Source: Escherichia phage C130_2
Length of the DNA: 41,775 nt
Reading direction: 5' to 3' (one strand)
Sequence record: MH363708
Position numbers and translations under genes: made by a program
In this document: positions 2,125 to 41,775 of the stretch, piece after piece
Layout: the number at the start of each line of letters is the position of its first letter
How positions within the stretch are numbered: the first letter of the stretch is position 1
The notes under the pieces: model-generated
Database searches by the model: none
Seen by the model: only the letters and a program-made list of their open reading frames with translations
What the model was told of the DNA's origin: nothing

Positions 2125-3666
2125 TCATTGTTCAGCGAGCGGAGGCATTGAGGCTTGTTTAGCCGTTAGCGTCGTGCCGCCGTTCAACTCGTCAAAGGCT
2201 CGGATATATTGCTTCTCGATCAGGGTGCGGATTGACCGCAGGATGTTTGACCGGTGCGCCCTCAACTTCTCTTCGCAGATCTTCGACAACTCGCTTTGCA
2301 ACGCCTTCCCGCCGCAGTAGTGGATCAGGATATCCAAAACCTTTTGTTCGGCGTTCGTCGGCTTCTGCTTGCCCTCGGCCCGCTCTTTCTTCTTCTCGCC
2401 CTCCAGGTGCGCTTTTAGCTCTTCTGCCAACTGCTCTTCGGTCACGATCTCGCACTGGTTGAAGTAGCCGCCACAATAGGCCGGATCGATAGGCCGCAGA
2501 CCGGCGAGCGGATTCTCTGGGGGGATTGCGTCGGCAAACTCTCGTTCGTACTTCTCACGCTGGGCGCGTTCAAATTCACCCTCGAAGATCGGCATACTGC
2601 GGCGAGTCAGTCGCAGGAGTTGGGCGATCCCCCCACCACGACGCTTGCCCGCAGCCATGATCACTTTTTCGCTGTCGGTCTTGTCCAGGGTCAGCGAAAA
2701 GGTTTTCCACACTGCGCCCTTTGCAGCACCGCCGCCGCGTGATTCAAGCACCAGTGACGCGGATCGCTCGGCTTCCTTCGATACGTGCGGCACAAAGATC
2801 CCGCAAGCACCCAGCGCCGTTGAAAAGCGCTGCCCGCAAAACGTCACATACTGCTGATCGTCGTTGCTGTTTTCGTCAAGGGCTTTGCCGTTGCGCTGGG
2901 CACTGGATAGGTGAAAACTCTTTGAGTCATAAACAACCATGCAGATCCGGCGATCACCTGCAAACTCTCTGATCTCGCTAATCTGACGTGATGCCGTTTC
3001 ACCCCATTTGGGGCGCGGCAGTTTGATGATCTGACCATCGCGCATGACTTCTTTTTGAATGTCCGTAAGGGCTGCGGGCTTATCGTAGATCAGGACGTGA
3101 TCCAGGATGTTAACGCCCCATTCAAGCTGCCATGCGGAAAGGCAGTTGATCACGGTTTCCGCGTCTTCGGTAAAGAATACGCTGATCCCCTTCTTTACGC
3201 GGAAGGCATCAAGAAACGGCCTTCCGGTTGCCACGCACGCTGCCAGCATCGAAAGCAAAGTTGTTTTGCCCACACCTGGCCCCGCGTTAATCTCGTTGAT
3301 CGTCTTCATGTTGAAGAGGTATTCAACAAAGGGCGTTGGCATTTCCGGCTTCGGGTTTTGGATGTACCCACGGATCACCGCTGGCGCTTCCGGTTTTTCC
3401 GGTGCCGGTTGCGGCTGATCCTGCTGCTGATCGTCCTCAACTTCGACGATCCGATCCAGGTGATCTGACAATTCACGATCAGACGGTGGCGGCGCATCAT
3501 GCCCCACGTATTCTGGCGGCAATTCAGGCATGTTGGCATCGTCCAGCACGCCCCAATTGTCCTGCGCTTGCTCGTCCTCTTCCACGTAATGCGGCGGCAC
3601 GTCTTCTGCGTCAATAGGCGCAAACGGGCGCAAATCTTTTTTAGGGTCGAACTTTTCACCAGCCAT
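2125..3666 (-). CDS. Replication protein with RecA-fold P-loop NTPase domain (helicase or initiator-like)
   Basis: 513 aa; acidic and proline-rich N-terminus, Walker A GPGVGKTT, Walker-B-like hydrophobic strand ending in D/E; AAGGAG RBS; adjacent origin-like region. Confidence 0.55.
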   Translation of the reverse strand: MAGEKFDPKKDLRPFAPIDAEDVPPHYVEEDEQAQDNWGVLDDANMPELPPEYVGHDAPPPSDRELSDHLDRIVEVEDDQQQDQPQPAPEKPEAPAVIRGYIQNPKPEMPTPFVEYLFNMKTINEINAGPGVGKTTLLSMLAACVATGRPFLDAFRVKKGISVFFTEDAETVINCLSAWQLEWGVNILDHVLIYDKPAALTDIQKEVMRDGQIIKLPRPKWGETASRQISEIREFAGDRRICMVVYDSKSFHLSSAQRNGKALDENSNDDQQYVTFCGQRFSTALGACGIFVPHVSKEAERSASLVLESRGGGAAKGAVWKTFSLTLDKTDSEKVIMAAGKRRGGGIAQLLRLTRRSMPIFEGEFERAQREKYEREFADAIPPENPLAGLRPIDPAYCGGYFNQCEIVTEEQLAEELKAHLEGEKKKERAEGKQKPTNAEQKVLDILIHYCGGKALQSELSKICEEKLRAHRSNILRSIRTLIEKQYIRAFDELNGGTTLTAKQASMPPLAEQ

Positions 3667-3698
3667 AAAACTTTACTCCTTAATGAATGTGCCCAGCC

Positions 3699-3727
3699 AT
3701 TATGCGCAGGAGTTATCAATAAATCAA
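3699..3727 (-). promoter_or_regulatory. Sigma70-like promoter for the replication-protein gene
   Basis: Minus strand TTGATT, 17 bp, CATAAT, about 30 nt upstream of the RBS AAGGAG and ATG at 3666. Confidence 0.4.
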
Positions 3728-3757
3728 ATCAAAAAATCAATTGATTCTGACAATCAG

Positions 3758-3806
3758 AAATAGCACTTTTTGCTAAAACAGATTAATACAGACCATATAT
3801 AGTTAA
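3758..3806 (+). promoter_or_regulatory. Promoter-like bipartite element (site A) for the plus-strand early block
   Basis: AAATAGCACTTTTTGCTAAAACA (3758-3780), 18-bp spacer, CATATATAGTT containing a TATAGT -10-like hexamer; inverted-repeat centre about 42 bp upstream of the predicted start site. Confidence 0.5.
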
Positions 3807-3836
3807 CCCATCGAAACGAACAACGAGGCAGACAAA

Positions 3837-4004
3837 ATGAACTTTCCAAAAATCACTTACACCGCCAGCCGTAGCAAAAAATTCATCACCATTGAGCACG
3901 CGCCAAAATACGGCGTAAGCACCAAAGTAACGCGCAACGTTACCGGCAAACGTGAAGCGCGTCAGATTGCAAATGAGCTGGGCGGCATCTGCTGGAACTT
4001 CTAA
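3837..4004 (+). CDS. Hypothetical small basic protein (55 aa)
   Basis: ATG at 3837 with GAGG RBS 9 nt upstream; below the track size cut-off, translated manually (MNFPKITYTASRSKKF...ICWNF). Followed by a GGCCCC-TTCG-GGGGCC hairpin. Confidence 0.4.
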   Translation: MNFPKITYTASRSKKFITIEHAPKYGVSTKVTRNVTGKREARQIANELGGICWNF

Positions 4005-4012
4005 CCAACCAC

Positions 4013-4028
4013 GGCCCCTTCGGGGGCC
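4013..4028 (+). other. GC-clamped UUCG-tetraloop hairpin within the operon
   Basis: GGCCCCTTCGGGGGCC; no U-tract follows, so it is more likely an RNA stability or processing element or a weak attenuator than a full terminator. Confidence 0.35.
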
Positions 4029-4049
4029 ATATCAACTGAGGCAAAGACC

Positions 4050-4739
4050 ATGCAAAACAAAAAAGTATTCGTTAAAGAGGATCGCTATCTGGTGATCAAG
4101 CGCGCTGACCTGGAAGCGGCAACCGCTGCGGGGCTGCTGTCAGTTGGTCAGATTGCGATCCTGAATAAGATCCTTTGCGAGTCCAGCCGGATCCGCAGCA
4201 ACCGTGGCGCACGCCCGCTGCACGGCCTGTTTGTTGAAAATGACTGGCCTGAATACGACGCCGTTTTAAAGATGATTGCAGACCGCGTGGAAGGCGTGGA
4301 CGGCGCTGATAAGCAGGGGCCGATCCTTTACTGCATCGTTGACGCTGACGGCTTGCCATTCATGCAGGAATACTGCGTTGATCTGGATGCAGCCGCATTG
4401 CAAAAAGAAGTGGACGCGATGAACGAGCAAGACGGGATCCCCCCAGGTGGTGACGGCTTCCGCGTCGTGCCCCTTGAGGTGTACACCATTTCAGGCGCGC
4501 AACAACGCTGGGCCTGGTCAACGATCTTTGATCGCTTCCTGCGCACATTCCCTGAGCAAATGAACGTGCCCAACCGCAACGCAACCACGATGATTGATGA
4601 TCTGCTGGGTGAGTACGGCGAGATCCGCGATAATGCCCAGGCGGTGATCGACGAACTCGAAGAGGCGGCGAGCCATTCACCGGACGCCCGCCCAGCGATC
4701 AACAACGCGATCAAACTTCTCCGGGGTCTGCACAAATAG
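4050..4739 (+). CDS. Hypothetical early protein (229 aa), acidic
   Basis: Long ORF with GAGG RBS; no recognisable motif. Confidence 0.6.
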   Translation: MQNKKVFVKEDRYLVIKRADLEAATAAGLLSVGQIAILNKILCESSRIRSNRGARPLHGLFVENDWPEYDAVLKMIADRVEGVDGADKQGPILYCIVDADGLPFMQEYCVDLDAAALQKEVDAMNEQDGIPPGGDGFRVVPLEVYTISGAQQRWAWSTIFDRFLRTFPEQMNVPNRNATTMIDDLLGEYGEIRDNAQAVIDELEEAASHSPDARPAINNAIKLLRGLHK

Positions 4740-4780
4740 CACTTTTTGTTAAAACGATGGGATAATTACTATATATACTT
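4736..4780 (+). promoter_or_regulatory. Promoter-like bipartite element (site B)
   Basis: ATAGCACTTTTTGTTAAAAC, 18 bp, TATATATACT (TATACT -10-like), upstream of gene 4812. Confidence 0.5.
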
Positions 4781-5974: not shown

Positions 5975-6673
5975 ATGCGTATCACAAAGGCAATGCAGGA
6001 AACAATTTTCGAAAACATTATTGCAGACAATCACCCGCTGCGCGTCCGTGCCGATAAGGTGCGCTGGAACGTCGCGCGCATGGTGGCAGATCTGGTGCTG
6101 GAAGCCCGCGCAAAAAATGGGTTTAAATCCGACGCGGAGATCGGCGCGTTAATTGAAGAGGTGAAGGATCTTAATAAGCGCGGCAAAGATTTTTTGAATG
6201 TCTCAAACTCGTTTAATAAATTCCGTCTGGAAGGTGAGGGGGAAGAAAAATATTATTACGATTATAACCTTTATTTCACGGTTGGCGGGCAGAAGCGCGA
6301 AGCCTCTTTCCTCGGTGAGTTGGACAAGGATCACCGTCTGCGCGCCGGTATCATAACCCCAGGCGTTGGGCATGAGGTGGCGCGGCCTTACCTGGGCATG
6401 TTCACACCAACCGGACGGATCAACGTTCCTGCGGATCATTGGGTCATGGCGCGCTTGCAGGAGTTGGAAAGCGAAGTTGCAGCCATTAACGGTGAGCACA
6501 TAACGTTAAAAAGCACCGTCTTTGCAACCCTGAATAAATTCACTACGGTTAAAAAGCTGGTGGCACACTGGCCCGAAGTGGAAAAATACATTCCGAAGGA
6601 TCAGCCGGTAACGGGCACCGGCATTGCGATCAGCGTCGCGGATCTTAATGCGATGTGCGGCATTCCAAAGTAA
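5975..6673 (+). CDS. Hypothetical protein (232 aa)
   Basis: ATG at 5975 with AGGAG RBS; followed by an intrinsic terminator. Confidence 0.6.
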   Translation: MRITKAMQETIFENIIADNHPLRVRADKVRWNVARMVADLVLEARAKNGFKSDAEIGALIEEVKDLNKRGKDFLNVSNSFNKFRLEGEGEEKYYYDYNLYFTVGGQKREASFLGELDKDHRLRAGIITPGVGHEVARPYLGMFTPTGRINVPADHWVMARLQELESEVAAINGEHITLKSTVFATLNKFTTVKKLVAHWPEVEKYIPKDQPVTGTGIAISVADLNAMCGIPK

Positions 6674-7545: not shown

Positions 7546-8078
7546 CGTGGGCCGCTGTAGTTGCAGCGATCCAACGGTGGTGGAAGCCAGCCGCGCTGCT
7601 GTTGCTGCTGGGTGGATCCTTCGCCGCCGGCACGGCCTGGAATGATCGGGGCTGGCAAGCAAAATGGGCTGATCGGGATGCAAAAGAATCCTCCCAGGAA
7701 ACGAACGCGCAGACCGCAGCCCGCATGATTGAACAAGGGCGAACCATTGCCCGTGAAGAGGCTGTGAAAGATGCACAACAACAAGCGGCAAAAGCTGCTG
7801 CCACTGCTGCTGGCCTGTCTGCCACTGTTAGCAAGTTGCAGCAACAAGCCGGAAAACTCGCAACCCGCCTGGACGCCGCAAAGCACACCGCAGATCTTGC
7901 CGCTGCCGTCGCAAGCAAGACAACCGGCGCAAACGCCGCAATGCTCGCCAACATGCTCGGAAGCCTTGCAGAAGAAGCTAAATATTATGCTGGAAGATCT
8001 GACGAAAGCTATCGGGCCGGAATGACGTGTGAAAGGATTTACGATCAGGTGCGGGAGTCAAACAACAAGGGGCCATGA
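7542..8078 (+). CDS. i-spanin (Rz-like)
   Basis: ATGA overlap with the endolysin stop; N-terminal TM helix then Ala/Gln-rich coiled-coil periplasmic domain; last gene of the lysis cassette. Confidence 0.65.
7771..8025 (+). CDS. o-spanin (Rz1-like lipoprotein) embedded in the +1 frame of the i-spanin gene
   Basis: Lies entirely within 7542-8078 in another frame; signal peptide with lipobox LLASC, proline-rich mature part with Cys residues; the classic lambda/P21 nested arrangement. Confidence 0.6.
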
Positions 8079-8092
8079 TGGCCCCTTTTTTT
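8069..8092. terminator. Bidirectional intrinsic terminator between the lysis cassette and the convergent Ig-like gene
   Basis: GGGGCCATGATGGCCCC followed by T7 on the plus strand and a U-rich stretch on the minus strand. Confidence 0.6.
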
Positions 8093-8888
8093 ATGCTGCT
8101 GGGTTAACTGTGACCGTGCAAACGTTGCTGGTAACGGTTTTCGGCGCGTTGTTGTTCGCGCTGGTAACGGTGCAACGGAAGCGCTTGCCGCTGTCGGATT
8201 CCTGCGGGGTGGCAAATGTCAGCGTTGGGCCGGTAGCGCCAGTGATGCCGGACGCGCCCCCGTTCGTTACGTTCGTCCAGGTGGCGCCGTCCGTGGACTG
8301 CTGCCACTGGTACGTGTAAGGCAACAAGCCGTCAGCCGCCACAACCGCCAGGCTTGCTGAGGTGCCAGCCGTCCAGGTTGCAGTCGCTGCAAGGTTCGTG
8401 GTCAGGCGGATCGCAACTTTGGTGCGCTCGCGCAGTGATTCCACGGTTTGCCCTGCGGAGTCGGTAACACGGCAGAAGTAATCACCGTTGTTGCTCGCTG
8501 CATAAGACGGGATGTTATAGGTATTCTGATCCGATCCGATTGGGTTATCAGTCGAAGAAGCGCGGCGAAACCATGCGTAATGATACGGCGGGATCCCGCC
8601 TTCCATTTCCACGGTGAAAGTTTTGTTTGCGCCCAGCGCCAGATAAGTTGCCGTGGCGTCACTGCCGTTATTGCCTGGCAGGTTGGTTGCGAAGGTGAGC
8701 GGGGGCACCTGGTTTGGATCCAGTTCGATATAAAACATACCAGTTGGATCCAGCGTGAGTGCTGCCTCTTGCTCTGCGGTCAGGTAGATAACGGAAAGTT
8801 GCGGAGTCTGCCCGCCGTCCGGCCCCGCAATGCGGGTGACTTTCCAGCCCTTAAGGGCGCGATCAGGGTGTCGGTGCCAAAAGCCCAT
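8091..8888 (-). CDS. Ig-like (I-set type) tandem-domain protein, possible virion decoration or adhesin
   Basis: 265 aa; two repeats with the Ig signature (PYHYAWF...GDYFCRV and PYTYQWQQSTDG..W...DSGKRFRCTV); AGAGG RBS. Confidence 0.55.
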   Translation of the reverse strand: MGFWHRHPDRALKGWKVTRIAGPDGGQTPQLSVIYLTAEQEAALTLDPTGMFYIELDPNQVPPLTFATNLPGNNGSDATATYLALGANKTFTVEMEGGIPPYHYAWFRRASSTDNPIGSDQNTYNIPSYAASNNGDYFCRVTDSAGQTVESLRERTKVAIRLTTNLAATATWTAGTSASLAVVAADGLLPYTYQWQQSTDGATWTNVTNGGASGITGATGPTLTFATPQESDSGKRFRCTVTSANNNAPKTVTSNVCTVTVNPAA

Positions 8889-10083: not shown

Positions 10084-10319
10084 TAGCAATCCTTGTGATC
10101 ATCCCACGGCCCGAAGCCGCCAACGTAAACAAATTCACGGCCCATGCCGCCGCCGTCCTGCCGGTCATGATAGGCCGCATTCTGGCCCGTTCTCTTCTCC
10201 TGCTTCATTGCCTTGCAGGACTTGGAGCAAAAGCGGCCCCAACCGCGCCGCAGGTCAACGGCGCGCACTTCATGCGGTTTTTTGCACCACTCGCAAGGTT
10301 TAGTGACCATCTTTGCCAT
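10083..10319 (-). CDS. Small C4 zinc-finger protein
   Basis: 78 aa; CEWCKKP...CSKSCK motif. Confidence 0.5.
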   Translation of the reverse strand: MAKMVTKPCEWCKKPHEVRAVDLRRGWGRFCSKSCKAMKQEKRTGQNAAYHDRQDGGGMGREFVYVGGFGPWDDHKDC

Positions 10320-10321
10320 GA

Positions 10322-10636
10322 TTACTGATCCCCCCAGCCGTAAGCGGCTTTTAAATTTTCGTTAGCCTTCTGCATTTGTGCGTGGGCTTCGCGCAGCGTA
10401 TCGCGTTTCACTTCCACTGACGCGGCGTAAAGGCGGGTACGGTTGCGAAGGCTGCAAGCGTTGTCGAAGTTGACGCGCGCCAGCGCCAGCGCCAGTGGAT
10501 TAACCACGCGGAGCGGTTCGGATCCTTCGCGGCTTCCGGTGAATACCAACGCTTTTGCGCGGTAGATCTCGCAGCCCGCAAAGGCTGCTTTCTTGCCCCA
10601 ATGTTTAGCGCGTAATTCCTGGATAGTTGCTTTCAT
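10322..10636 (-). CDS. Hypothetical protein (104 aa)
   Basis: ATG at 10636 with GGGAGG RBS; first gene downstream of promoter-like site C. Confidence 0.5.
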   Translation of the reverse strand: MKATIQELRAKHWGKKAAFAGCEIYRAKALVFTGSREGSEPLRVVNPLALALARVNFDNACSLRNRTRLYAASVEVKRDTLREAHAQMQKANENLKAAYGWGDQ

Positions 10637-10660: not shown

Positions 10661-10710
10661 GGGTTAACTATATATGGTCATTATGCCGGATGTTTAGCAA
10701 AAAGTGCTAT
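10661..10710 (-). promoter_or_regulatory. Promoter-like bipartite element (site C)
   Basis: Minus strand ATAGCACTTTTTGCTAAACA, 18 bp, CATATATAGTTAACCC; the 16-mer CATATATAGTTAACCC is identical to that at site A. Confidence 0.5.
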
Positions 10711-10713
10711 CAA

Positions 10714-11533: not shown

Positions 11534-11746
11534 TTACGCCTGATTTTGCGCGCGGTCTAATTCGCGCTCGGTTGCGGTGATCACCACATAATCATGCTTT
11601 TCCATGCTGGCGAAACGAGCCAAAGCACCATCGCTTAAAAGCTGGAAAATAAAGTGATCGGAAACGCGGCTTGTTGATTCAGCCAGATCGCGCAACTGCT
11701 CAAGCTGGGTGACGGTTAATTGTGATGCGTGGATTGCAAATATCAT
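11534..11746 (-). CDS. Hypothetical small protein (70 aa)
   Basis: ATG at 11746 with AAGGA RBS; overlapping stop-start with the upstream gene. Confidence 0.4.
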   Translation of the reverse strand: MIFAIHASQLTVTQLEQLRDLAESTSRVSDHFIFQLLSDGALARFASMEKHDYVVITATERELDRAQNQA

Positions 11747-11958
11747 TGTGCGTGATCCTTTACTGATTGGCGATATTCCGCAAGGTCTTTGCGGGCCATT
11801 TCGGGCCATGATGAAACCGGTGCAACGCGGTATTCATCGAAATAAGAAGCATCAAGACTTTTTGCAAATTCTTCTGCCTCTGCAACGGTGCTGCATTCGC
11901 CGGAACCGATCAGGAATCCGACGATAAAATAAACCCACTGACGTTGTTTATGATCCAC
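11743..11958 (-). CDS. Hypothetical small membrane-associated protein (71 aa), GTG start
   Basis: GTG at 11958 preceded by AAGGGG; hydrophobic N-terminus WVYFIVGFLIGSG. Confidence 0.4.
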   Translation of the reverse strand: MDHKQRQWVYFIVGFLIGSGECSTVAEAEEFAKSLDASYFDEYRVAPVSSWPEMARKDLAEYRQSVKDHAQ

Positions 11959-12600: not shown

Positions 12601-13329
12601 TTATAAGACGCTTGCGGAAGCGTCCAGCATATCTTGCTTAGTAAGATAATCCGTCTTCACTGGCCCGCGTTTGCGTGGCTTAATCAGGAATAGTGAACTT
12701 GCCTTACTGTTTTTCCGGCCTTCCACTTCGGTTGCCGCATTCACGAATGCTACGCGCCCGTTATGGAATTTTTCTTCGCCTTTGGCGTCGGTGCCGTAAT
12801 AGCCCATGATGTTTACAATCTCGCTGCACGCCTGGATCATGTCATAGAACCATTGCGGCGAGTGGTCATGATTCAGAAGCATAACCGTTGTCACGCCATG
12901 CTGTTTTGCATTTCGTGCTGCTGCTGCAACCCAGGGGATCGGGTCTGCATACGGTGGATTACACCAGACGGTTTCCCCCTCCTTGCCCCATGCCACCTGC
13001 GGATCCAGCGCGTTTTGCTGCTCGTCGATAAACTCAACGCAAAGGGCGTTTCCGGCCTCTGCCGCAACGTCACGCGCGAACGGCCCCCAGCGGTGATCGG
13101 CATAGTTAAACAACCATTTTGGGGTGCGCCATTTCTGCCGGATAGCGTCAGGGGTTTTGCTCTTCGCAAAGCGTCGGCCCGTAATGACCTGATCCACTTC
13201 CTCCGGGGTTGCCGCCAGCGCGCCAGCGCCAGCCGCTTTCAATGCCTCTTCCAGCACCGCTTGCGGGATCGCAAAGTCTGCTGCCACCTGCGCAAGATCA
13301 ACGGTCTTGCTGTCGTTTTCGTCTTTCAT
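12601..13329 (-). CDS. DNA N6-adenine methyltransferase (phage Dam-like)
   Basis: Catalytic motif WCNPPY; ATG at 13329 overlapping the dUTPase stop (TGATG). Confidence 0.8.
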   Translation of the reverse strand: MKDENDSKTVDLAQVAADFAIPQAVLEEALKAAGAGALAATPEEVDQVITGRRFAKSKTPDAIRQKWRTPKWLFNYADHRWGPFARDVAAEAGNALCVEFIDEQQNALDPQVAWGKEGETVWCNPPYADPIPWVAAAARNAKQHGVTTVMLLNHDHSPQWFYDMIQACSEIVNIMGYYGTDAKGEEKFHNGRVAFVNAATEVEGRKNSKASSLFLIKPRKRGPVKTDYLTKQDMLDASASVL

Positions 13330-13781
13330 CACTTCGCCTTTTTATCAGTTGAGCCAAAGCCGTTGGCACCGCGTGCCGTGTCTTTGATCGTTTCCACTTC
13401 CGCGATCTGCCACTGCGGCGCGTCAACGATCATGCCCTGGGCAATAGCCGTGGTTGGGTCAATGGCTGGATATTCGCCGGTAGGGCGATCAGAAACGATT
13501 TTTACTTTCACCTCTCCGGTATAGTCGCTATCGATCACCCCCACGCAATTTGACAAGCGCGCATCCTGCTTGAATCCGTGCCCGCTGCGGCTGTAAATCA
13601 TCAGGGCTTTGCCCTTCGGAATGTCGAATACCAGCCCCGTTGAGAAGATCAGGGCGTTGATTTTTTCGTCGTAACTGCTTTCGATCCCGTAAATGTCGAA
13701 ACATGCTGATCCCTCGGTTGCATATTCTGGCAGACGCGCCAGGGGGTTTAACTTCTTAACGCCTAACACATTTGATCCCAT
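13329..13781 (-). CDS. dut: dUTP diphosphatase (dUTPase)
   Basis: Motifs SRSG, GVIDSDYTGE and C-terminal RGANGFGST characteristic of trimeric dUTPases; GAGG RBS. Confidence 0.85.
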   Translation of the reverse strand: MGSNVLGVKKLNPLARLPEYATEGSACFDIYGIESSYDEKINALIFSTGLVFDIPKGKALMIYSRSGHGFKQDARLSNCVGVIDSDYTGEVKVKIVSDRPTGEYPAIDPTTAIAQGMIVDAPQWQIAEVETIKDTARGANGFGSTDKKAK

Positions 13782-13811
13782 TGTTGGTGCCTCGTTGGTG
13801 AGTGGTGAAAC

Positions 13812-13857
13812 ATACTATATATAAAGACTTTGCAAACGCTTTAGCAATTCGTGCTAT
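13812..13857 (-). promoter_or_regulatory. Promoter-like bipartite element (site D)
   Basis: Minus strand ATAGCACGAATTGCTAAAGC, 18 bp, TATATATAGTATG, upstream of dUTPase. Confidence 0.5.
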
Positions 13858-13939
13858 TCTCTAACTGTCTTTGTTTCCTTCTGCTTTTTTTAGCCAGCCA
13901 GCTAACGCCGCGCCTTCTCCCTTTGGTTGCGGCTTTTTT

Positions 13940-14782
13940 TCAGCTTAACCACGCATTCATTGCCCCTGTGATATCCAGACCGGCGCGCACCCTGCCGCAA
14001 TCCTGGTATAAATAGATCTCGTCCTGATCCAGCGCCACCAATCGCACTTCACGATCACCCCTGTAGCGTGCTGAAACCTCGCGGCAGTTCAGCGGGGTAA
14101 AGCCGATCCATATCTCGCAACCCTTCGCGGGGCCGTCATGCTCTGCCATTGCCACGGCACAAAGGGGATCGCTGATCAGGTAGATTGGCCCGTCTTGCAG
14201 CCCCTTTGCTGGGTGGATCACTGCCACTGCGCCCCAGGTGCGAAGACCTGCCGCAAAGTGTACTGATCGATCAGGGTCTACCCGCGCCAGATTGCAGAAT
14301 TGAAGCGACGCGCCCGACTCGGCAACCTTCCTGCATGGCAGATAGGCTGATCCCTTTCTCCCCCCAGCACGCGCCATGCTCACAACTTTATCGTGCGGGA
14401 TCTCCGCGCTGTTCCTGGTGGTCTTGCTCTTCGATATGGCTTTAGCCTCTCTGGCGACGCTCTCGCGCCGTTCTGGCGTCATGCCCCCCAGCCAATCACC
14501 CAAATCATTGATCGCCTCGTTAAACGGCTGCATACGCGCTTTCATGAACCAATAAAGCCCATCATGCGAGCCGCCGCAGTCGCCGGAACAATACGCGAAA
14601 CCTTCCTCGCGCTTTTGCGGTTTTTTGTGGCCCCAGCGGAAGCGATCAACGCCGCCGCAGATGGGGCAAGATTGGTGGTTGCCGTCAAAGTTTTTGTGCT
14701 GCCAGCCGCACAACTCGATCAACGCCTTTTCCCACTTATCCCGCATTCCTCGCAAAACTGTTTGCTTGTCATGGATTGCCAT
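13940..14782 (-). CDS. Putative DNA primase (zinc-ribbon plus TOPRIM-like)
   Basis: 280 aa; CPICGG...YCSGDCG zinc-binding motif and an acidic LVALDQDE segment; divergent from the helicase gene. Confidence 0.45.
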   Translation of the reverse strand: MAIHDKQTVLRGMRDKWEKALIELCGWQHKNFDGNHQSCPICGGVDRFRWGHKKPQKREEGFAYCSGDCGGSHDGLYWFMKARMQPFNEAINDLGDWLGGMTPERRESVAREAKAISKSKTTRNSAEIPHDKVVSMARAGGRKGSAYLPCRKVAESGASLQFCNLARVDPDRSVHFAAGLRTWGAVAVIHPAKGLQDGPIYLISDPLCAVAMAEHDGPAKGCEIWIGFTPLNCREVSARYRGDREVRLVALDQDEIYLYQDCGRVRAGLDITGAMNAWLS

Positions 14783-14804
14783 TTTTGCCGGTGTCCGTTA
14801 TATT
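14776..14804 (+). promoter_or_regulatory. Sigma70-like promoter for the helicase / recombination operon
   Basis: TTGCCA, 17 bp, TATATT, about 40 nt upstream of ATG 14846 (RBS GGAG). Confidence 0.4.
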
Positions 14805-14845
14805 CATGAATCAGTCAGGTAGAAGAATAACGGAGCAAAAGACAA

Positions 14846-16903
14846 ATGGCAACCGCTGACACGTTAGAAAGCACCTTCGCAGAAAGGTTGATGGAAACGA
14901 TAGAAGACCGGATCGCCCGCACGCCGATTGAAGATCTGATCCGGCAGTTTGGCGATCTGCCGCTGGATCCTTACCCCTATCAGTGGGCCGCTTATGACGC
15001 GGTGGCGCAGTGCATCCGAAAATACCCAGGGCCGGTGATCGTTGAAGCGGCAGTGAGCGCGGGCAAAACGATCATGATCTCCATGCTGGCGCGCCGCATC
15101 ATGCAGTTGCCGTGGGATGATGAAAACCCAGCGAAAAAGCACCGCGCTTGTGTGCTGTCTCGCCAGGCTGAGATCATCGATCAGGATGCGCAGGAATTGT
15201 GGAATTTTCACGTAAACAACTCCATTTTCTGCGCTGGCCTGGGCAACAAAAAATCAACCCATTATCCCATCGTGTGCGGCAGTGAAGGCACGATGGTTAA
15301 CAGTCTGTTTGACAAGCTGGCAGACTTCGCCCCGCTCTTCCTGATCATTGACGAATGCCACCACGTCAACATTGACGATCTGATCGAATCCGAAGAAAGG
15401 ATGGTGCCCGACTACCTCAAAGACGAAAACGGCGCACTTGTTCTGGAAGACGGCGAGCCTGTCCAGATTGGCGAGCACAAAGGCGAGAATTACGAGGAAA
15501 TGATCGCCGCAAAGCGCAACGCTTACACGATCATAATCAGGACTTTGCAGGAGCGGTGCCTTAAGGTTCACGGGTGCCGGTTGCGCGTGATCGGTTACAC
15601 CGGCACCCCTTACCGTGGGGTTGATTCCATCGTCAATGAGGATTACGAAACGCCAGGATTTTGGCGCAAGACGGTGATCCGCATCACGACAAATTACCTG
15701 GTAAAAGTCGGTTCAGTTGTGCCCACTTACTTTGGCGTGTCGTCGCTGGGTTATCAGTTGGATCAGTTCGCCAGCTTCACTGAGTTTGGGGCGAAGGATT
15801 TTAGCAACAACGAAATGATCGCCATGCAGCGGCAGATCCTGAAAGATAAAAAGCTGACCTGGAAGATCATGCAAGAAGTGGTGGAACTCACCAAAGAGCG
15901 CAACGGGGTTTTAGTCACCTGCGCTGGTGTGGCCCACTGCAAAGAGGCCGCAGCGGCCCTGCCGGACGGCATAAGCTATGCGATCATCACGGAAGACACC
16001 GGCCCGAAAAAGCGAATGGAGATCATCGAAGACGCGAAGGCCGGAAAGATAAAATTCATCTTCCAGGTTAACGCCCTTACAACGGGCGTGAATGTGCCCC
16101 TGTGGGATACTTCCGTTATCCTGCGCCGTATTGGGTCACTCACCCTGTTGGTGCAACTGCTGGGCCGTGGGATGCGTATTTTAAAGGATTGGATGATTGA
16201 AGCCGGATTCAAGAAGAGCGATCACCTCGTCCTGGACTATTCGGGCACTATGGCTGCAATGGGCGGGCTGTATGAGGATCCGATCCTTGAAGATTACGTG
16301 TACACCGTGGACAAGGTGAAAGAGGATTGGAAGGAATGCAAATACGGGCACAAAAACGGCAAGCACGCGCGCCGCTGCCGCCACATTCACCCCAACGGCG
16401 AGCGCTGCGATGATTTCTTTGTTTATAAGCTCTGCGAAGACGTCAAAGACCGCAGCACGGGCCGCATCTTGCAGAAGGGCTGCGGGGCCAAAAATGACAC
16501 CGTGGCGCGCCAGTGCCGCTGCTGTGGCAACCTCCTGATCGATCCAAACAAAAACCTATCCGGCGAGCATTACACGGATAAAGATTATTGCGACGTGATC
16601 AGCTTTACGCCGCAGGTTGGCAACGGTGGATCCTTCGCTATTGAGTATCAACTCATGAAGGATGGGATCCAGTTTAAGGCGTGGGAAATTCACTGGCCCA
16701 ACTCCAAAAACCCTGGGGCGAAACAGCTATGGAACCAGTTTTTAAAAGAGCATGTTTTCATGCCGGAGCACCGCGCCACGTTGAAGGCGTGCAAATCTGC
16801 CGAAGCCGTGTTGGCTAACGTATCGTTGATCCTCCCCCCAAAGCGGGTGACGCATCGTAAAATGGGAAGCGGCAAAGATAACGTTTACAAAAAGGTATTT
16901 TGA
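14846..16903 (+). CDS. SF2 DEAD/DEAH-box family helicase with C-terminal zinc-ribbon
   Basis: Walker A AAVSAGKT, Walker B / DEAH-like LIIDECHH, C-terminal Cys clusters (CRHIHPNGERC, CRCCG). Confidence 0.8.
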   Translation: MATADTLESTFAERLMETIEDRIARTPIEDLIRQFGDLPLDPYPYQWAAYDAVAQCIRKYPGPVIVEAAVSAGKTIMISMLARRIMQLPWDDENPAKKHRACVLSRQAEIIDQDAQELWNFHVNNSIFCAGLGNKKSTHYPIVCGSEGTMVNSLFDKLADFAPLFLIIDECHHVNIDDLIESEERMVPDYLKDENGALVLEDGEPVQIGEHKGENYEEMIAAKRNAYTIIIRTLQERCLKVHGCRLRVIGYTGTPYRGVDSIVNEDYETPGFWRKTVIRITTNYLVKVGSVVPTYFGVSSLGYQLDQFASFTEFGAKDFSNNEMIAMQRQILKDKKLTWKIMQEVVELTKERNGVLVTCAGVAHCKEAAAALPDGISYAIITEDTGPKKRMEIIEDAKAGKIKFIFQVNALTTGVNVPLWDTSVILRRIGSLTLLVQLLGRGMRILKDWMIEAGFKKSDHLVLDYSGTMAAMGGLYEDPILEDYVYTVDKVKEDWKECKYGHKNGKHARRCRHIHPNGERCDDFFVYKLCEDVKDRSTGRILQKGCGAKNDTVARQCRCCGNLLIDPNKNLSGEHYTDKDYCDVISFTPQVGNGGSFAIEYQLMKDGIQFKAWEIHWPNSKNPGAKQLWNQFLKEHVFMPEHRATLKACKSAEAVLANVSLILPPKRVTHRKMGSGKDNVYKKVF

Positions 16904-17370
16904 TGAACCGGAAAGAAACAGCGCATTGGATCGAATACTGGACGGAATGGGATGAATCACAATTCCTGCCGTCCGAAGATGCAGACGCGGAAACGTGCTT
17001 CCATTGGGTTACTGAGTTTTTCCCTGATCTGCTGATCTTCCACCCCGTCAACGAGTCTGGCGGGGGCCGGAATCCGCAGTATGAGCAAAAGTTAAACGCA
17101 ATGGGCCGCGTCAAAGGGATCATGGATTATATCTTGCTGGAGCCGTTCGGCCCTTACCCCCACGCGGTGATCGAACTCAAGCGCCGGAACAAGAAGAAAA
17201 GCCGATTGAAGCCGGAGCAAAAAGAGCAACTGGAGCGCGCCCGCAGGAAAGGTGCATTTTGTGCTGTTTGTTGGGGGCCGGATGCTTTCAAGGCTTGCAT
17301 TCATGAATTAATGATGCTTAAATCTGCTCATGTTCACGAAACAATGAAGGGCAAAGACAATGCAGACTGA
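16903..17370 (+). CDS. VRR-NUC domain nuclease
   Basis: TGATG overlap with the helicase stop; PD-(D/E)XK-type motif (IMDYILLEP...AVIELKR) as in VRR-NUC proteins. Confidence 0.55.
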   Translation: MNRKETAHWIEYWTEWDESQFLPSEDADAETCFHWVTEFFPDLLIFHPVNESGGGRNPQYEQKLNAMGRVKGIMDYILLEPFGPYPHAVIELKRRNKKKSRLKPEQKEQLERARRKGAFCAVCWGPDAFKACIHELMMLKSAHVHETMKGKDNAD

Positions 17371-19623: not shown

Positions 19624-19629
19624 CTGGTC

Positions 19630-19650
19630 GGCCCCTTCGGGGGCCATTTT
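19630..19650 (+). terminator. UUCG-tetraloop hairpin with short U-run (partial terminator)
   Basis: GGCCCC-TTCG-GGGGCC followed by ATTTT. Confidence 0.45.
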
Positions 19651-19663
19651 GTAGGGCTGGCCC

Positions 19664-20098
19664 ATGAAAATTTGCACAACCTGCAAGGAATCAAAGCCGC
19701 TGACGGAATACCACGCCAACCGGCGAAGCAAAGACGGCAAATCATGCACCTGTAAGGGCTGCAAACGCGATAAAGATCGCAGCCGGTACGAATCCAACGC
19801 CGATGCAGTAAAAGCCCGTGTGCGGGCTTATCAGGCCGCAGAAGGCAAGGCCGTTGCGAATGGCTGCAAAGCTGAGTACAAAAAGCGCCACCCGAAGAAG
19901 GCGCGGGCACATCAACTGGTTAGAAATGCTCTTCGGCGCGGTGAATTAACGCGCCAGCCGTGCGAAGCGTGCGGCACGTCCAACCATGTGATCGCCCATC
20001 ATGACGATTACGATCAGCCGCTGGCGGTGCGCTGGCTGTGCGAAGATCATCACAAAGAATGGCACCGCATCAACGGAGAGGCAAAAAACCCATGTTAA
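19664..20098 (+). CDS. HNH endonuclease
   Basis: CxxC...CEACG...HHDDYDQPL...WLCEDHH arrangement typical of HNH nucleases. Confidence 0.6.
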   Translation: MKICTTCKESKPLTEYHANRRSKDGKSCTCKGCKRDKDRSRYESNADAVKARVRAYQAAEGKAVANGCKAEYKKRHPKKARAHQLVRNALRRGELTRQPCEACGTSNHVIAHHDDYDQPLAVRWLCEDHHKEWHRINGEAKNPC

Positions 20099-20478
20099 AC
20101 ACTCTGAAAGATAAAAACGTTTATTTGGCTGGCCCAATGACGGGGATCCCTGATTACAACCGCCCCGCGTTTATGGTGGCGCATTTCGCGCTGCGCCCGC
20201 ATGTGCTCGGCCTGTTGAATCCATCATTCCTGCCGGTAACGCTGCGTGATCATGCCGCCTATATGGCGATCTCCCTGCCGATGGTTGACGCGGCAGACGC
20301 GGTGGTATTCCTCCCAGGCTGGAAGGCTTCGAAAGGTTGCGCGCTGGAATTGGCCCGCGCCAATGAGCGTGGGATCCCGTGCTTCGAATACCTCAACCCC
20401 AGCAAAAAAGGCCGCTTGCCAAAACTGGTGCCTGTGGGCGATGATAGCGGGGTGAATACACGGGGGAATGAATCATGA
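20092..20478 (+). CDS. Nucleoside 2-deoxyribosyltransferase-like (DUF4406-like) protein
   Basis: ATG at 20092 overlapping the HNH stop; VYLAGPMTG...VVFLPGW...ELARA pattern of a Rossmann-like fold. Confidence 0.45.
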   Translation: MLNTLKDKNVYLAGPMTGIPDYNRPAFMVAHFALRPHVLGLLNPSFLPVTLRDHAAYMAISLPMVDAADAVVFLPGWKASKGCALELARANERGIPCFEYLNPSKKGRLPKLVPVGDDSGVNTRGNES

Positions 20479-20690: not shown

Positions 20691-20704
20691 TCCGGGGTGA
20701 AAAA

Positions 20705-20733
20705 ATAAGGGGCCATTGCGGCCCCTTTTTTTA
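20705..20733. terminator. Bidirectional intrinsic terminator between the plus-strand block and the tailspike gene
   Basis: A-run, GGGGCCATTGCGGCCCC, T7. Confidence 0.65.
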
Positions 20734-22983
20734 TGTTGGCGTGCGGAACGACACAACTTTTGCCGCTGCAAGCTGGGTGCCAGCCGGTGTGGCGGTCTGG
20801 ATAGCGTGAGCAATATCGATCCTGATCTCACTGGTTGGATCGTTCACGTTGACACGATAAGGCCCGCGCGTGATCCACGTAGAAAGAGGATTGCCCCCTT
20901 CACCGGCACCAGGGATCACAATTCGGCACCCTGGCGAAAGTGGCGTTTTGTAGATCCAGACCATATCACCATTATTGCCACCTAGCGGAAAGTTTGAAGC
21001 AATCGAGAAGGATCCCACGGTGGTTGCCTTGATTTTAAATTCATCAATGGCGGGAATGTACGCGCCGGAGGCGGTCACAACGAAGATCTTTCCGTCATTT
21101 CGAACAACGAGATCCCCCTCCATGAACTCACGCCCCGTGGGGAATGCGTTACCATCCCAAATGCCCGTGGCGTTCATATCAGCCGGTGACGGAATGATAT
21201 AAGTGTGATTCGATGCGGTCATTTTTGCACCGATCCCGCCGTCAATCCCCTGGCGCGGATATGGGCGCGCAAAGACGTTGGATCCTACGCTTTCGATATG
21301 CGAATAGGCGCAGCGTGACCAACCTTGATCGCCGTAGCCGTTCACGTCAGTTGCGTTAACGTTGACCATTCGCAAGATGGTGCGCCCCGTGGCAAGGTAG
21401 CCGTTTGAAGCTGTGCCGCCCGATGAATCATCACCCACGCAATCAAAGATCCGGCAATGAACATTGCTCATGTTCAATTCAGTTGCCACACCGAAAAGCG
21501 AGAATTTCGCCACGTTCACATTTTCAATGTAATACGTGTTAGTTGCCCCTGCCTTCTCGGTGCCGATACCGGCATAAAAGCGCCCTGTTTTACTGTATAC
21601 GTTGCGGATCGCCATATCGTGACAAGGGCCGCGCGCGCCAACGCCAGCATTTGTGCCCCATTCAAGCATAATAACGCGCACATCCTGGGCAAGCGTGCTG
21701 CCGGTAACTACCGGTTCACCGTAAACCCCATCAATGGAGCAACGGCGGGAGCCGTAGAAAAGCACCGTCGCAACCGTCAGGCCGGAACCGTTCGAAACGT
21801 TCTGGTTGGGGTCGCCGTGGATGTTTTCAACAACGGAATCACGAACCATTTCGAAGTGTACGATCTGACGCACTTTGTTTGCGTAAACGTTACGGATCGT
21901 AATGTTTTTGGCAAAGTTTGCGTCAGGTGTATCAATGCCATAAGGGCTTTGACCTGCAACCCCAATCCCAATACCCCAGTTTGACGGCGTGATCGGGGCT
22001 TGGCCTGTTGAGTCGATGTTATCAAGGAAAATGCCGTCAATCAGGCAACCATTATCATAATGGCGCTGTACTACGTTTAACTCGATCCCGTCGCCGCCCA
22101 TATCGTAAAACGACAAATTGCGGTAGACGCCGGACACAACCGTTGATCCCGTGCCTTGCTGGAGGATGCCGTAAAGGCCATTCCGAAACTCGGAATCGCT
22201 GACCTCAATAGTGCTTCCGTCCACTGGCACACCCTGCATCATGATTGATGCAACCTTGCTGGTTGTCGGCTTACCGTCAAACATGCAATCGCGGATCCTT
22301 ACGTCGCCGCCGTAGTGCATGATTCGCAGGTTGTTAATCACTGCACCTTCGATCAGGGTGTCAGTCAGGCGAAAATCTGCGGTGCCCTTCCAGGTTCCCC
22401 CCATGATGGTGATCCCATTCGGGTTGACCGTGCTTTCAAGCGTGCCAGACCAACCATAAGCGTTGACGATCTTCCCGTTCGCTTTGGCGTAGTCAAACAT
22501 TGCCTGAATCGCCTGTGAAACGCTGGTGTACTCTTCGCGGCCCACAAAATCAAACGGCGTCACAAAGCCTTGCAGTTTGGTTTTTAGCGTGCCTTCTGGC
22601 GTGCCCACGTATTCCCAGCCGGTAGACGATCCGATCACCTTCCACATCTGCGCCGCGTCATATTCCAGAAGGTTATCAAAGGAATATTGCAGCACGTCAT
22701 TGCGATCATAAACGTCCATGCTTGATGCGGTCTGCGTCACAAAGCGCCCAACAATCCCGTTATATTCGGGATAGCCGCTCTGGTTGATTTTGATCGGCTG
22801 CGGCACCGGCACCAGCGTTAGATCCTCATTTTCCAGGTACACTTGCACCTGATTTGCCGGATCCTTCGGGTTGGTGTCGGGCTTGCCAATATAGATATCA
22901 CCGCCGCTGATAGGCGCAAACTTGCCAACCTGAATAAACGGGCTGGACGGCATACGCACGGCAGAAAAAACAATATCGCTCAT
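20731..22983 (-). CDS. Tailspike protein (P22-like N-terminal head-binding domain, beta-helix receptor-binding domain)
   Basis: ATG at 22983 with GAGG RBS; N-terminus GDIYIGKPDTNPKDPANQVQVYLENED...PIKINQSG..YNG matches the P22 tailspike head-binding domain as recalled; rest is Gly/Asn/Val-rich, consistent with a parallel beta-helix. Confidence 0.85.
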   Translation of the reverse strand: MSDIVFSAVRMPSSPFIQVGKFAPISGGDIYIGKPDTNPKDPANQVQVYLENEDLTLVPVPQPIKINQSGYPEYNGIVGRFVTQTASSMDVYDRNDVLQYSFDNLLEYDAAQMWKVIGSSTGWEYVGTPEGTLKTKLQGFVTPFDFVGREEYTSVSQAIQAMFDYAKANGKIVNAYGWSGTLESTVNPNGITIMGGTWKGTADFRLTDTLIEGAVINNLRIMHYGGDVRIRDCMFDGKPTTSKVASIMMQGVPVDGSTIEVSDSEFRNGLYGILQQGTGSTVVSGVYRNLSFYDMGGDGIELNVVQRHYDNGCLIDGIFLDNIDSTGQAPITPSNWGIGIGVAGQSPYGIDTPDANFAKNITIRNVYANKVRQIVHFEMVRDSVVENIHGDPNQNVSNGSGLTVATVLFYGSRRCSIDGVYGEPVVTGSTLAQDVRVIMLEWGTNAGVGARGPCHDMAIRNVYSKTGRFYAGIGTEKAGATNTYYIENVNVAKFSLFGVATELNMSNVHCRIFDCVGDDSSGGTASNGYLATGRTILRMVNVNATDVNGYGDQGWSRCAYSHIESVGSNVFARPYPRQGIDGGIGAKMTASNHTYIIPSPADMNATGIWDGNAFPTGREFMEGDLVVRNDGKIFVVTASGAYIPAIDEFKIKATTVGSFSIASNFPLGGNNGDMVWIYKTPLSPGCRIVIPGAGEGGNPLSTWITRGPYRVNVNDPTSEIRIDIAHAIQTATPAGTQLAAAKVVSFRTPT

Positions 22984-23035
22984 TGTTGGTGCCTCGTTGT
23001 TGTATTCAGGCTTTAGTGTATAGACGTTCAGGAAA

Positions 23036-23057
23036 TTAAAAAAGGGGCCGAAGCCCC
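23036..23057 (-). terminator. Intrinsic terminator (UUCG hairpin plus U-run) upstream of tailspike
   Basis: Minus strand GGGGC-TTCG-GCCCC followed by TTTTTTT; the 20-mer is identical to the terminator at 31301-31320. Confidence 0.6.
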
Positions 23058-23062
23058 TTTGG

Positions 23063-31300: not shown

Positions 31301-31320
31301 AAAAAAGGGGCCGAAGCCCC
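31301..31320 (-). terminator. Intrinsic terminator after the coat gene
   Basis: Minus strand GGGGC-TTCG-GCCCC followed by TTTTTT; identical to 23036-23057. Confidence 0.65.
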
Positions 31321-31353
31321 TTATTTATACACTTTTCAATCAGGTTGCGCCAG

Positions 31354-33656: not shown

Positions 33657-33726
33657 TAGCTTTTACACTCCTATACGCGATGAATTTTTGTACCCCATCG
33701 GCGGGCAAGGTGAGTGTAAGGCAGTA

Positions 33727-34730: not shown

Positions 34731-34774
34731 ATTCTTAACCCTCATGAATTAGTGAAGTGTACGGGCAAAGAATA

Positions 34775-34813
34775 GCCCGCCGAAGCGGGCTTGTCTTTAG
34801 CAAAAAGTGCTAT
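34775..34813 (-). promoter_or_regulatory. Inverted-repeat motif copy (site E) plus UUCG hairpin at the portal / insert junction
   Basis: Minus strand ATAGCACTTTTTGCTAAAG overlapping the portal stop codon, followed by GCCCGC-TTCG-GCGGGC; no TATATAG element here. Confidence 0.4.
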
Positions 34814-37050: not shown

Positions 37051-37098
37051 TTGTCGGCACTCCCTCTGGTTTCATCTGGATATCACCACGGGGCAAAA

Positions 37099-37143
37099 AT
37101 AGCACAAATTGCTAAAACATTTCACGGATTAATGATTATAGTA
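37099..37143 (+). promoter_or_regulatory. Promoter-like bipartite element (site G) driving a plus-strand ORF inside the late region
   Basis: ATAGCACAAATTGCTAAAACA, 18-bp spacer, then TGATTATAGTA (contains the TATAGT hexamer). Confidence 0.45.
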
Positions 37144-41496: not shown

Positions 41497-41775
41497 CGTC
41501 TTTGCCTCATTGTTTCGTGAATGTGTGGTGAGCGTACAACAAAGGGGCCGCAGCCGCAAGCCCCTTGATATCCTCCCAGCGAGGCTGGGCTTAAATTGCC
41601 CTGTCGCTGCTCTTCGCCAGGTGTCCACCTTTGCCGATCCAGGCGCTGGCGCGCTGGTATTCGCTGGCGATCAACTCGTCGGTAACATACAGCCCGCCCC
41701 GATGATATGCCGCGTTAAACTCCGGCGATTCGTTGTAACCACGGCTCATAGCGTCTGCTATGGCTTCCAGCGCCT
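41491..41775. repeat. Terminal exact repeat, right copy (identical to 1-285)
   Basis: Same 285 bp as the window start; duplicates the 3' end of the 101-1222 gene, its terminator hairpins and the first two codons of the 41140-41496 gene. Confidence 0.9.

Follow-up and report, generated by a model that had tools for sequence, protein, structure and literature searches.

An identical 19-nt leader precedes the dUTPase and tailspike genes of Escherichia phage C130_2 and of related phages

Introduction

In the genome of Escherichia phage C130_2 (sequence record MH363708; the whole stretch of 41,775 nt is called the window below), two functionally unrelated genes, coding for a dUTPase and a tailspike, start behind the same 19-nt leader. 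Several described systems resemble this arrangement. In phage T4, RegA has operators on several early mRNAs, and there too a common sequence lies over the Shine-Dalgarno (SD) motif and the AUG of genes with unrelated functions. The concept of boundary sequences, said to stem from the HK620 genome analysis by Clark et al. in 2001, concerns lambdoid and P22-like phages. The likeness is that a short non-coding stretch reaches from a terminator to the tailspike start in a group of phages that exchange their tailspikes. For prokaryotes in general, 'promoter propagation' has reportedly been described by Matus-Garcia et al. in 2012.

A further parallel is the direct repeat of phage TLS (consensus aaATAGCACnnnTTGnTAAAA), of which 21 copies are located about 76 nt upstream of start codons and which is also found in T1, Rtp and Rogue1; a stoperator, an enhancer site and an UP element have been proposed as its roles (PMC11447400). 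We found the repeat described only in that paper, and the paper on phage Skarpretter is silent on regulation. As the function of the repeat is not established in the literature, membership of a gene start in such a cassette says nothing about mechanism.

The dUTPase leader of C130_2 is the 3' end of a T1-like unit of this kind: the 20–21-nt box, its orientation, its intergenic position and the distance of 76 nt all agree, and the unit is also present before the gene at 3837 and at five other positions in C130_2. Additionally, T1-like cassette leaders carry the pattern CACCAAC...AACGAGG as well. In contrast to the described cases, the carrier is a P22-like podovirus (a relative of Skarprettervirus) and not a siphovirus of the Drexlerviridae, and no box accompanies the tailspike copy of the 19-mer.

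The C130_2 genome, which is also IMG/VR entry UViG 2974611538_000001, is complete; it measures about 41.49 kb, with bases 1–285 recurring at 41491–41775. Its virion genes are P22-like, its replication and recombination module is T1-like, and it encodes homologues of Erf and exonuclease VIII. It is 92–95% identical to 'Stutzerimonas phage vB_SstS_STP9' (STP9) and about 70–74% identical to Escherichia phage Skarpretter.

Results

The two leaders are identical over 19 nt

The leader, CAACGAGGCACCAACAATG, is present on the minus strand at 13779–13797 and, as an exact copy, at 22981–22999. The first copy consists of a GAGG SD motif, an 8-nt A/C-rich spacer and the ATG of the dUTPase gene (13781–13779), while the 3' end of the second is the ATG of the tailspike gene (22983–22981). 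A preliminary description of this DNA had reported the identity as 18 nt long; the observation was correct, but the real length is 19 nt. The match is not confined to the SD motif and the start codon; it includes the whole 8-nt spacer. It stops sharply: the next 10 nt upstream agree at 4 positions, and there is no matching beyond the ATG.

With up to 3 mismatches allowed, the 18-mer was found in C130_2 only at the dUTPase and tailspike sites, and none of 100 shuffled sequences contained two matches to it. Among the 111 ATGs of C130_2 that have an SD-like motif upstream (6105 pairs), the second-longest shared suffix was 9 nt. In the same all-pairs test the longest shared start suffix was 11 nt for Skarpretter and 16 nt for T1. 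Both the shuffles and the comparison of all translation initiation regions (TIRs) reject chance as the source of the 19-nt identity. An assembly artefact was ruled out as well, since both copies are present in STP9, in three metagenome assemblies and in Logan contigs.

In IMG/VR and the metagenomes, exact matches to the 18-mer are limited to the clade of C130_2, besides unrelated chance matches. Several of the unrelated metagenome contigs (L137, L148, L149, L155, L156 and L161) carry it as part of a repeated, conserved element about 75 nt long (...GTTTCAAACCGCAG...GTCGAGGATTTGAAAC GAGGCACCAACAATGAAATTGGGC...). In L149 there are two copies of the element, 146 nt apart; it is unconnected with C130_2.

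One way to obtain such a pair would be convergence, in which both leaders drifted independently to the optimum of a consensus, AAYGAGGCA followed by an A/C-rich spacer and ATG. GAGGCA with an A-rich spacer is indeed common to about 10 genes, the T1-like cassette leaders share CACCAAC...AACGAGG, and the related leader at 3837 already agrees with the 18-mer at 14 of 18 positions. However, the second-best pair reaches only the 9 nt given above (11 nt in Skarpretter), the identity ends abruptly on both sides, and the spacer CACCAACA is unlike the usual aAGACa. Nor does CACCAACA recur in the fetched loci, where even the nearest cassette leaders, T1-like ones included, are at least 4 mismatches away from the 19-mer. 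Among tailspike orthologues the spacer varies freely (CACTAAAA, CAACAAAA, TTAAATAAAA). Since it is free to vary, the identity points to common descent and not to convergence, which we regard as quite unlikely.

The 19-mer resembles an ordinary translation initiation region

In both copies GAGG is followed by 8 nt and ATG, and AA-GAGG agrees with AAGGAGG at 6 of 7 positions. This motif and spacing are in line with the TIR consensus of C130_2, which is formed by the ~10 genes mentioned above and reads GAGGCA, an A-rich spacer and ATG. In folding energy the leaders do not stand out from shuffled sequences (z = +0.95 and -0.01), no Rfam family matches the leader, and C130_2 contains no tRNA or tmRNA. 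A known RNA family or a structured leader was thus ruled out. The 19-mer would be the ribosome-binding end of two mRNA leaders with predicted lengths of about 25 nt each, and it probably serves each gene separately as an ordinary, efficient TIR.

A relationship to the leader of the first early gene, at 3837(+), had also been proposed, with 13 nt in common. The sharing is real but shorter: the tailspike leader has 12 nt (AACAACGAGGCA) in common with it and the dUTPase leader 10 nt (CAACGAGGCA).

The leader pair is restricted to one of two sister clades

Relatives were collected by a metagenome search with the 18-mer and, in Logan assemblies, via dUTPase homologues. They form two sister clades, one of the type seen in the window (window-type, 10 genomes or contigs) and one of the Skarpretter type. 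In the window-type clade the dUTPase has 150 aa and a band-7 gene is absent. The exact 19-mer precedes the dUTPase gene in 8 of the 10, the others being the contigs L170 (CAAAGAGGCAACAACAATG) and L171 (CAACTAGGCAATAACAATG). Before the tailspike gene the 19-mer is exact in all 7 cases where this region is seen, L170 among them.

In the Skarpretter-type clade (Skarpretter, L173/174, L175, L176, L178-181 and L182) the dUTPase has 147 aa. A band-7 gene and a terminator stand between the same promoter and the dUTPase gene, whose leader reads aacaGGAG...ATG, and the tailspike leaders read TAATGAGGCACTAAAAATG, TAATGAGGCAACAAAAATG or TAACGAGGTTAAATAAAAATG. The exact dUTPase copy of the 19-mer is present in no Skarpretter-type genome, and TIR pairs there share at most 11 nt (in Skarpretter). 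Judged from these sequences, the leader duplication is a shared derived character of the window-type clade.

Over 2.2 kb, the two Logan contigs L170 (SRR17230295) and L171 (SRR32034556) show 98.3% identity, and their dUTPase proteins are the same. Of the 37 differences between them, 3 are located within the 19-nt leader, and one further leader substitution is common to both. Compared with the tailspike leader of its own contig, the dUTPase leader of L170 has 2 changed positions. In L171 it differs from the 19-mer at 3 positions, the SD motif included (GAGG to TAGG); this contig is too short to contain the tailspike gene. The changes can be read either as relaxed constraint or as retuned dUTPase translation. 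Because the two leaders of L170 differ, their identity is not obligatory.

These contigs bear on the possibility of a shared translational operator, through which a trans-acting protein or a small RNA would co-regulate dUTPase and tailspike in the manner of T4 RegA. Such an operator would fit an identity that spans the entire ribosome-binding region of two mRNAs, is retained exactly in most genomes of the clade and shows no variable column among five genomes. However, L170 and L171 have lost the identity yet kept the gene, and the sister clade has no such pair. There is no complementary copy of the leader elsewhere in the C130_2 genome, no Rfam match and no conserved structure. No recognisable RNA-binding Pfam domain was found among the 28 non-structural proteins scanned, although many small open reading frames (ORFs) carry no annotation. 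Nor is there an obvious biological reason for coupling the two genes. Unlike the RegA-type operators, the leader has no regulator among the proteins scanned, and it is found at two sites only and in one clade only. We found no evidence of a shared regulator of the two leaders, and an operator seems very unlikely. We consider it highly improbable, too, that the 19-mer is a cis-regulatory RNA site which puts both genes under one trans-acting factor (a phage or host protein or a small RNA), with the dUTPase-leader changes of L170 and L171 representing escape or retuning.

The same contigs also weigh on continuing gene conversion, in which repeated short-patch recombination, perhaps by the phage's Erf and exonuclease VIII, would keep the copies identical. 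Homologues of both proteins are encoded by the phage, and cassette cores are closer to their paralogues than to their orthologues: Skarpretter 35076/35712 agree at 28 of 28 positions and C130_2 P1/P5 at 23 of 28, against only 14 of 28 for the orthologues P2/S_36885. Still, the dUTPase leader of L170 has diverged beside an unchanged tailspike leader, and that of L171 has diverged too, though there the short contig excludes the tailspike. Additionally, 19 nt is very short for homologous recombination, and a co-varying pair of leaders was seen in no lineage. Conversion is therefore, in our view, an unlikely explanation.

The elements upstream of the two leaders differ

The dUTPase gene (13329–13781, minus strand; 150 aa, Pfam PF00692, domain residues 16–145) has an in-frame GTG at codon 5 as a possible alternative start, and the gap between the primase gene and the dUTPase gene is 158 nt. 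The gap contains a T1/TLS-type direct-repeat box, AATAGCACGAATTGCTAAAG (13839–13858, minus strand), which is a palindrome, TAGCA-N5-TGCTA, located 76 nt upstream of the dUTPase ATG and free of mismatches to TAGCAC-N4-TGCTAAA. It is followed by a -10-like TATAGT (13814–13819, minus strand), which is separated from TTGCTA by 22 nt and from the ATG by 32 nt. The spacing of TATAGT recurs in 12 cassettes of C130_2 and Skarpretter and in a 211-sequence consensus. The transcription start site would be near 13806–13808, with a 5' untranslated region of about 25 nt. A canonical sigma-70 scan called no site upstream of either the dUTPase or the tailspike gene; the cassette sites were missed because their spacer is too long.

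The tailspike gene (20731–22983, minus strand) codes for 750 aa, with a P22-type head-binding domain (Pfam Head_binding, residues 1–111) and a colanidase-like body, and the protein aligns with Skarpretter gp16 from residue 1. Upstream of it and after the ejection-protein gene, which ends at 23063, there is an intrinsic terminator, GGGGC-UUCG-GCCCC plus U6 (23035–23060, minus strand), with an 8-bp stem, a UUCG loop and T6. TATACACT, which includes a -10-like TACACT, follows at 23015–23022 (minus strand), 15 nt after the T-run of the terminator and 31 nt before the tailspike ATG. No ATAGCAC/TTGCTAAA box was found within 200 nt upstream of the tailspike gene, and none with up to 2 mismatches anywhere upstream.

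The preliminary description had placed a TATA-rich element 20–25 nt upstream of each leader. The elements are there (TATATAGT at the dUTPase gene and at 3837, TATACACT at the tailspike gene), but they end 16–18 nt upstream of the 18-mer. It had further given the tailspike its own start site behind a strong terminator. The terminator, a hairpin with T6, is present; the start site is a plausible candidate. TACACT keeps A-11 and T-7, and its -35 position holds only TTTTTA/TTTTTT. TATACACT and its 15-nt distance to the T-run are invariant in the C130_2 clade, Skarpretter, L173 and L175, while the intervening 15 nt differ. TAC[AG]CT on this strand is intergenic in 5 of 9 occurrences, although only 6.5% of the DNA is non-coding (P about 1e-4, on a heuristic gene list). 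It is this invariance and this enrichment that make a separate tailspike start site plausible.

TACACT or TACGCT is found shortly after terminator hairpins at four minus-strand sites, 23015–23020, 33713–33718, 34756–34761 and 41–46 (=41531–41536). The genes behind these sites, all on the late strand, are those of the tailspike and the scaffold, the one that follows the portal gene, and the one at 41496. Orthologous sites are located in Skarpretter at 12662, 23107 and 31093, and at the scaffold copy a -35-like hexamer with 18-nt spacing is conserved. These sites may form a separate class of late promoters.

Taken together, the dUTPase and tailspike genes share their ribosome-binding region and differ in their upstream elements. 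As the tailspike gene lacks the cassette box, only the last 19 nt are common to both genes, and not a promoter-leader unit. The proposal of a reused promoter-leader cassette accordingly holds for the dUTPase gene and the gene at 3837 (seven copies in the genome) but not for the tailspike gene.

The dUTPase start region was probably rebuilt

The N-terminus of the dUTPase is derived. It reads MGSNV-L in C130_2, compared with MQ-L in Skarpretter and ME-L in the outgroup Sortsne, and thus has 3 extra codons. In the protein alignment, by which the starts were compared (a MAFFT alignment of the three start regions was uninformative), L6 corresponds to L3 of Skarpretter, and the ancestral ATG position reads AAT here. 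Sortsne, a related podovirus, has the primase gene, 173 nt and the dUTPase gene, with neither a band-7 gene nor boxes. Given the three extra codons relative to Skarpretter and Sortsne, the start region was probably rebuilt by copying that of the tailspike gene.

The flanks of the two copies are consistent with this direction. Codons 2–4 of the dUTPase gene (GGATCAAAT) agree at 7 of 9 positions with the SD region of Skarpretter, GGAGTAAAT. The stretch upstream of the dUTPase 19-mer, ACTCAC-CAACG, has its homologue in TCTCACGGCAACGG, the leader that this promoter has in Skarpretter-type genomes. The tailspike 19-mer is in an orthologous context on both sides (tgaatacaac | AACGAGG in C130_2, tgattacaac-tcatt-AACGAGG in L175).

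On balance we favour, as moderately probable, a one-off copying event within the genome, in which the dUTPase start region was rebuilt from the tailspike leader and then inherited. In the ancestor of the clade, the start region of the dUTPase gene would have been rebuilt and its start codon shifted 9 nt upstream, most likely with a short piece of the tailspike leader as the template. CAACG, a pentamer common to the ancestral leader of the promoter and the tailspike leader, would contain the left junction, and the right one would be at the new ATG, abutting an apparent relic of the old dUTPase SD motif. Afterwards, the dUTPase copy would simply have been inherited; in one sub-lineage it has begun to decay.

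Several observations weigh against this scenario. The direction of copying is a parsimony argument in which Sortsne is the only outgroup for the dUTPase N-terminus. The tailspike leader of Skarpretter agrees with the 18-mer at 15 of 18 positions, barely above the 14 of 18 of the unrelated family member at 3837, and is thus no proof of a greater age of the tailspike copy. The putative junction microhomologies are short (5 nt and 3 nt). Finally, among the five genomes 0 of 19 leader columns vary, compared with 15–22% of upstream columns; with the dUTPase copy exact in 8 of 10 members of the clade and no column variable, a constraint on the whole leader is possible.

Small regulatory parts are reused throughout the genome

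Exact repeats of at least 18 nt in C130_2 are boxes, promoter cores, terminators and the leader described here, with one exception, a coding 18-mer. The exception is an inverted pair, CCGCGCCGCAGGTCAACG, located inside coding regions at 10243–10260 and 32291–32308. A 22-nt promoter core is repeated at 3791/10658, and terminators form two exact pairs, 23038–23059 = 31301–31322 (22 nt) and 4012–4030 = 19629–19647 (19 nt). A near-exact terminator pair, 8054–8098 and 20694–20738 (45 nt, 82%), looks bidirectional and is located between convergent genes.

A second leader family, TTCACGAAACAATGA(G/A)GG(-/G)CAAAGAC(G/A)ATG, is found before two genes, one at 41496(-) and the other, for exonuclease VIII, at 17360(+), with copies at 17–31 and 17333–17347; the leader at 37177 is related to it. 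In T1, genes 35 and 36 have a 16-nt TIR in common. The repeats, the paralogous cassette cores, the second pair of leaders and T1 genes 35/36 together indicate that reuse of parts is normal in this group. As with T1 genes 35/36 and promoter propagation, the exact short repeats are limited to regulatory parts, namely promoters, terminators and TIRs. The difference is that here the TIR alone was apparently transplanted, between genes with different upstream control elements.

Tailspike exchange takes place inside the gene

The repeated leader had been suggested to be a signature of module exchange. We compared the region with close relatives, and in none of them does homology break at the leader. 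Sliding identity to STP9, OJJQ and OHCS falls to 56–80% between about 20746 and about 22530, while from 22531 on the N-terminal domain, the leader, the terminator and the upstream gene, and thus both sides of the leader, are 94–100% identical (STP9, OJJQ, JADHEE and OHCS). As the swapped segment ends at about 22530, the break lies some 450 nt into the tailspike gene, after the head-binding domain, and the leader is part of a conserved block. Going by these alignments, close relatives exchange the receptor-binding body as a unit, with the joint behind the head-binding domain. The differences in the body (20746–22530) may reflect a recent exchange or rapid divergence within one species-level cluster.

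That the leader is a boundary sequence, i.e., a short conserved recombination site for swapping tailspike or dUTPase modules, is extremely improbable. The idea draws on CUS-3, a temperate P22-like phage in which the exact interval from ant to the tailspike start, 101 nt, is annotated as 'bsq1; boundary sequence', and on the true exchange of tailspike bodies among close relatives. However, the CUS-3 sequence is unrelated to the leader, and the breakpoints are those at about 22530 and 20746, with the leader, terminator and N-terminal domain within the 94–100% block. C130_2 and Skarpretter are colinear across the tailspike gene, the leader and the terminator, and their tailspikes are homologous over the full length (62% aa). 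The 18-mer is, as described above, confined to this clade in public viral and metagenome collections, chance matches aside. In further contrast to lambdoid and P22-like boundary sequences, the second copy is located in the same genome, before an unrelated gene, and not in another phage.

A T1/TLS-type cassette in a P22-like podovirus

The plan of the cassette is ATAGCAC-N3-TTGCTAAA, 22 nt, TATAGT, 30–34 nt and ATG. There are seven copies in C130_2, seven in Skarpretter and about 19 in T1, and none of these boxes in Sortsne. The direct-repeat boxes of C130_2 are located at 3759–3778, 4735–4754 and 37098–37117 on the plus strand and at 34794–34814, 13839–13858, 10691–10711 and 1326–1346 on the minus strand. 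The distance from TTGCTA to TATAGT is constant at 22–23 nt, and in most copies the -10-like hexamer is 30–34 nt from the ATG. A complete cassette (3759–3839, plus strand) precedes the 55-aa gene at 3837, with the box at 3759–3778, TATAGT at 3798–3803, AACAACGAGGCA at 3819–3830 and the ATG at 3837; this region is 82% identical to Drexlerviridae phages. From box to ATG we counted 76 nt at the dUTPase gene (13857 to 13781) and 77 nt at this gene (3760 to 3837), and both boxes are intergenic and oriented along transcription. In IMG/VR, the exact box pattern was found in more than 120 stretches, many per genome, mostly in T1-like Drexlerviridae genomes of 46–53 kb. The T1/TLS repeat, published only for T1-like siphoviruses, is thus present in a genus of P22-like podoviruses as well.

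With the palindrome 22–23 nt from the TATAGT-like hexamer, its centre would be near -42 if the hexamer is a -10 element. Under the same condition, this would be the geometry of a class II activator site. Two other readings of the box were rejected. The sigma-54 promoter consensus is TGGCAC-N5-TTGCW; every copy of ATAGCAC-N3-TTGCTA has AG and not GG, and a gap of 3 nt and not 5 between CAC and TTGC. A T4 MotA box was considered because TTTGCTAAA is like TTTGCTTTA, but the box is near -40 and not -30.

The search for a box-binding protein by presence in C130_2, Skarpretter and T1 and absence from the box-less Sortsne yielded one weak candidate, a 71-aa ORF at 11743–11958 (E = 1e-4 to T1). The Pfam scans of the 28 non-structural proteins for box-binding or RNA-binding proteins yielded nothing. 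In cassette P2 (4756–4788) the -10-like element is within a 10-nt inverted repeat, GATGGGATAA ... TTATCCCATC, and similar arms, GGGGT ... ACCCC, flank the -10 in many Drexlerviridae cassettes. The inverted repeat may be a second protein-binding site or a DNA or RNA hairpin.

Other features of the genome and its relatives

The only canonical sigma-70-like pair near the dUTPase locus is at 14776–14852. It is divergent, TTGCCA-17-TATATT(+) and TTGCCA-17-TATTCT(-); the intergenic region in which it is located, 63 nt long and almost symmetrical, separates the primase gene from the helicase gene. The slot after the promoter that follows the primase gene varies (C130_2 13782–13939, Skarpretter 2997–4063, Sortsne 10308–10480, and L166-L168 of Lumpael, IME_EC2 and Kc237). 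It is occupied by dUTPase-Dam in C130_2 and Sortsne, by band-7, a terminator and dUTPase-Dam in the Skarpretter type, and by Dam alone in Murrayvirus and Kc237. A hairpin, CGGCA-ACGG-TGCCG, is kept at the 5' end of every Skarpretter-type band-7 leader.

At 5975–6673 and 20092–20478, C130_2 has genes with Nmad5 (nucleotide-modification-associated domain 5) and DUF4406 (nucleoside 2-deoxyribosyltransferase-like) domains, for which tblastn found no match in Skarpretter, Sortsne or T1. In the relative L172, a Tad2-like gene adjoins the gene of a helix-turn-helix regulator. The closest GenBank record, OR754315.1 (L001), is partial and unannotated and bears the label 'UNVERIFIED_ORG: Stutzerimonas phage'. 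This host assignment looks doubtful, since the remaining relatives all infect Enterobacteriaceae.

Discussion

The identical leaders of the dUTPase and tailspike genes are a small evolutionary curiosity, i.e., an ordinary ribosome-binding leader duplicated in one clade, and not a new control system. If the dUTPase start region was indeed rebuilt by copying, a phage gene can acquire a new start region through the loan of 10–20 nt from a second gene of that genome, an event that could be followed here at single-nucleotide resolution. Such borrowed parts would then decay at their own pace.

For the reading of phage genomes, this suggests that exact short repeats at gene starts need not signal recombination junctions or shared regulators. 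The exchange point of the tailspike in this clade appears to be the classical one, after the head-binding domain. Finally, the C130_2 group offers a second, smaller genome in which the function of the T1/TLS direct repeat may be tested, and this context is arguably more useful than the 19-mer itself.

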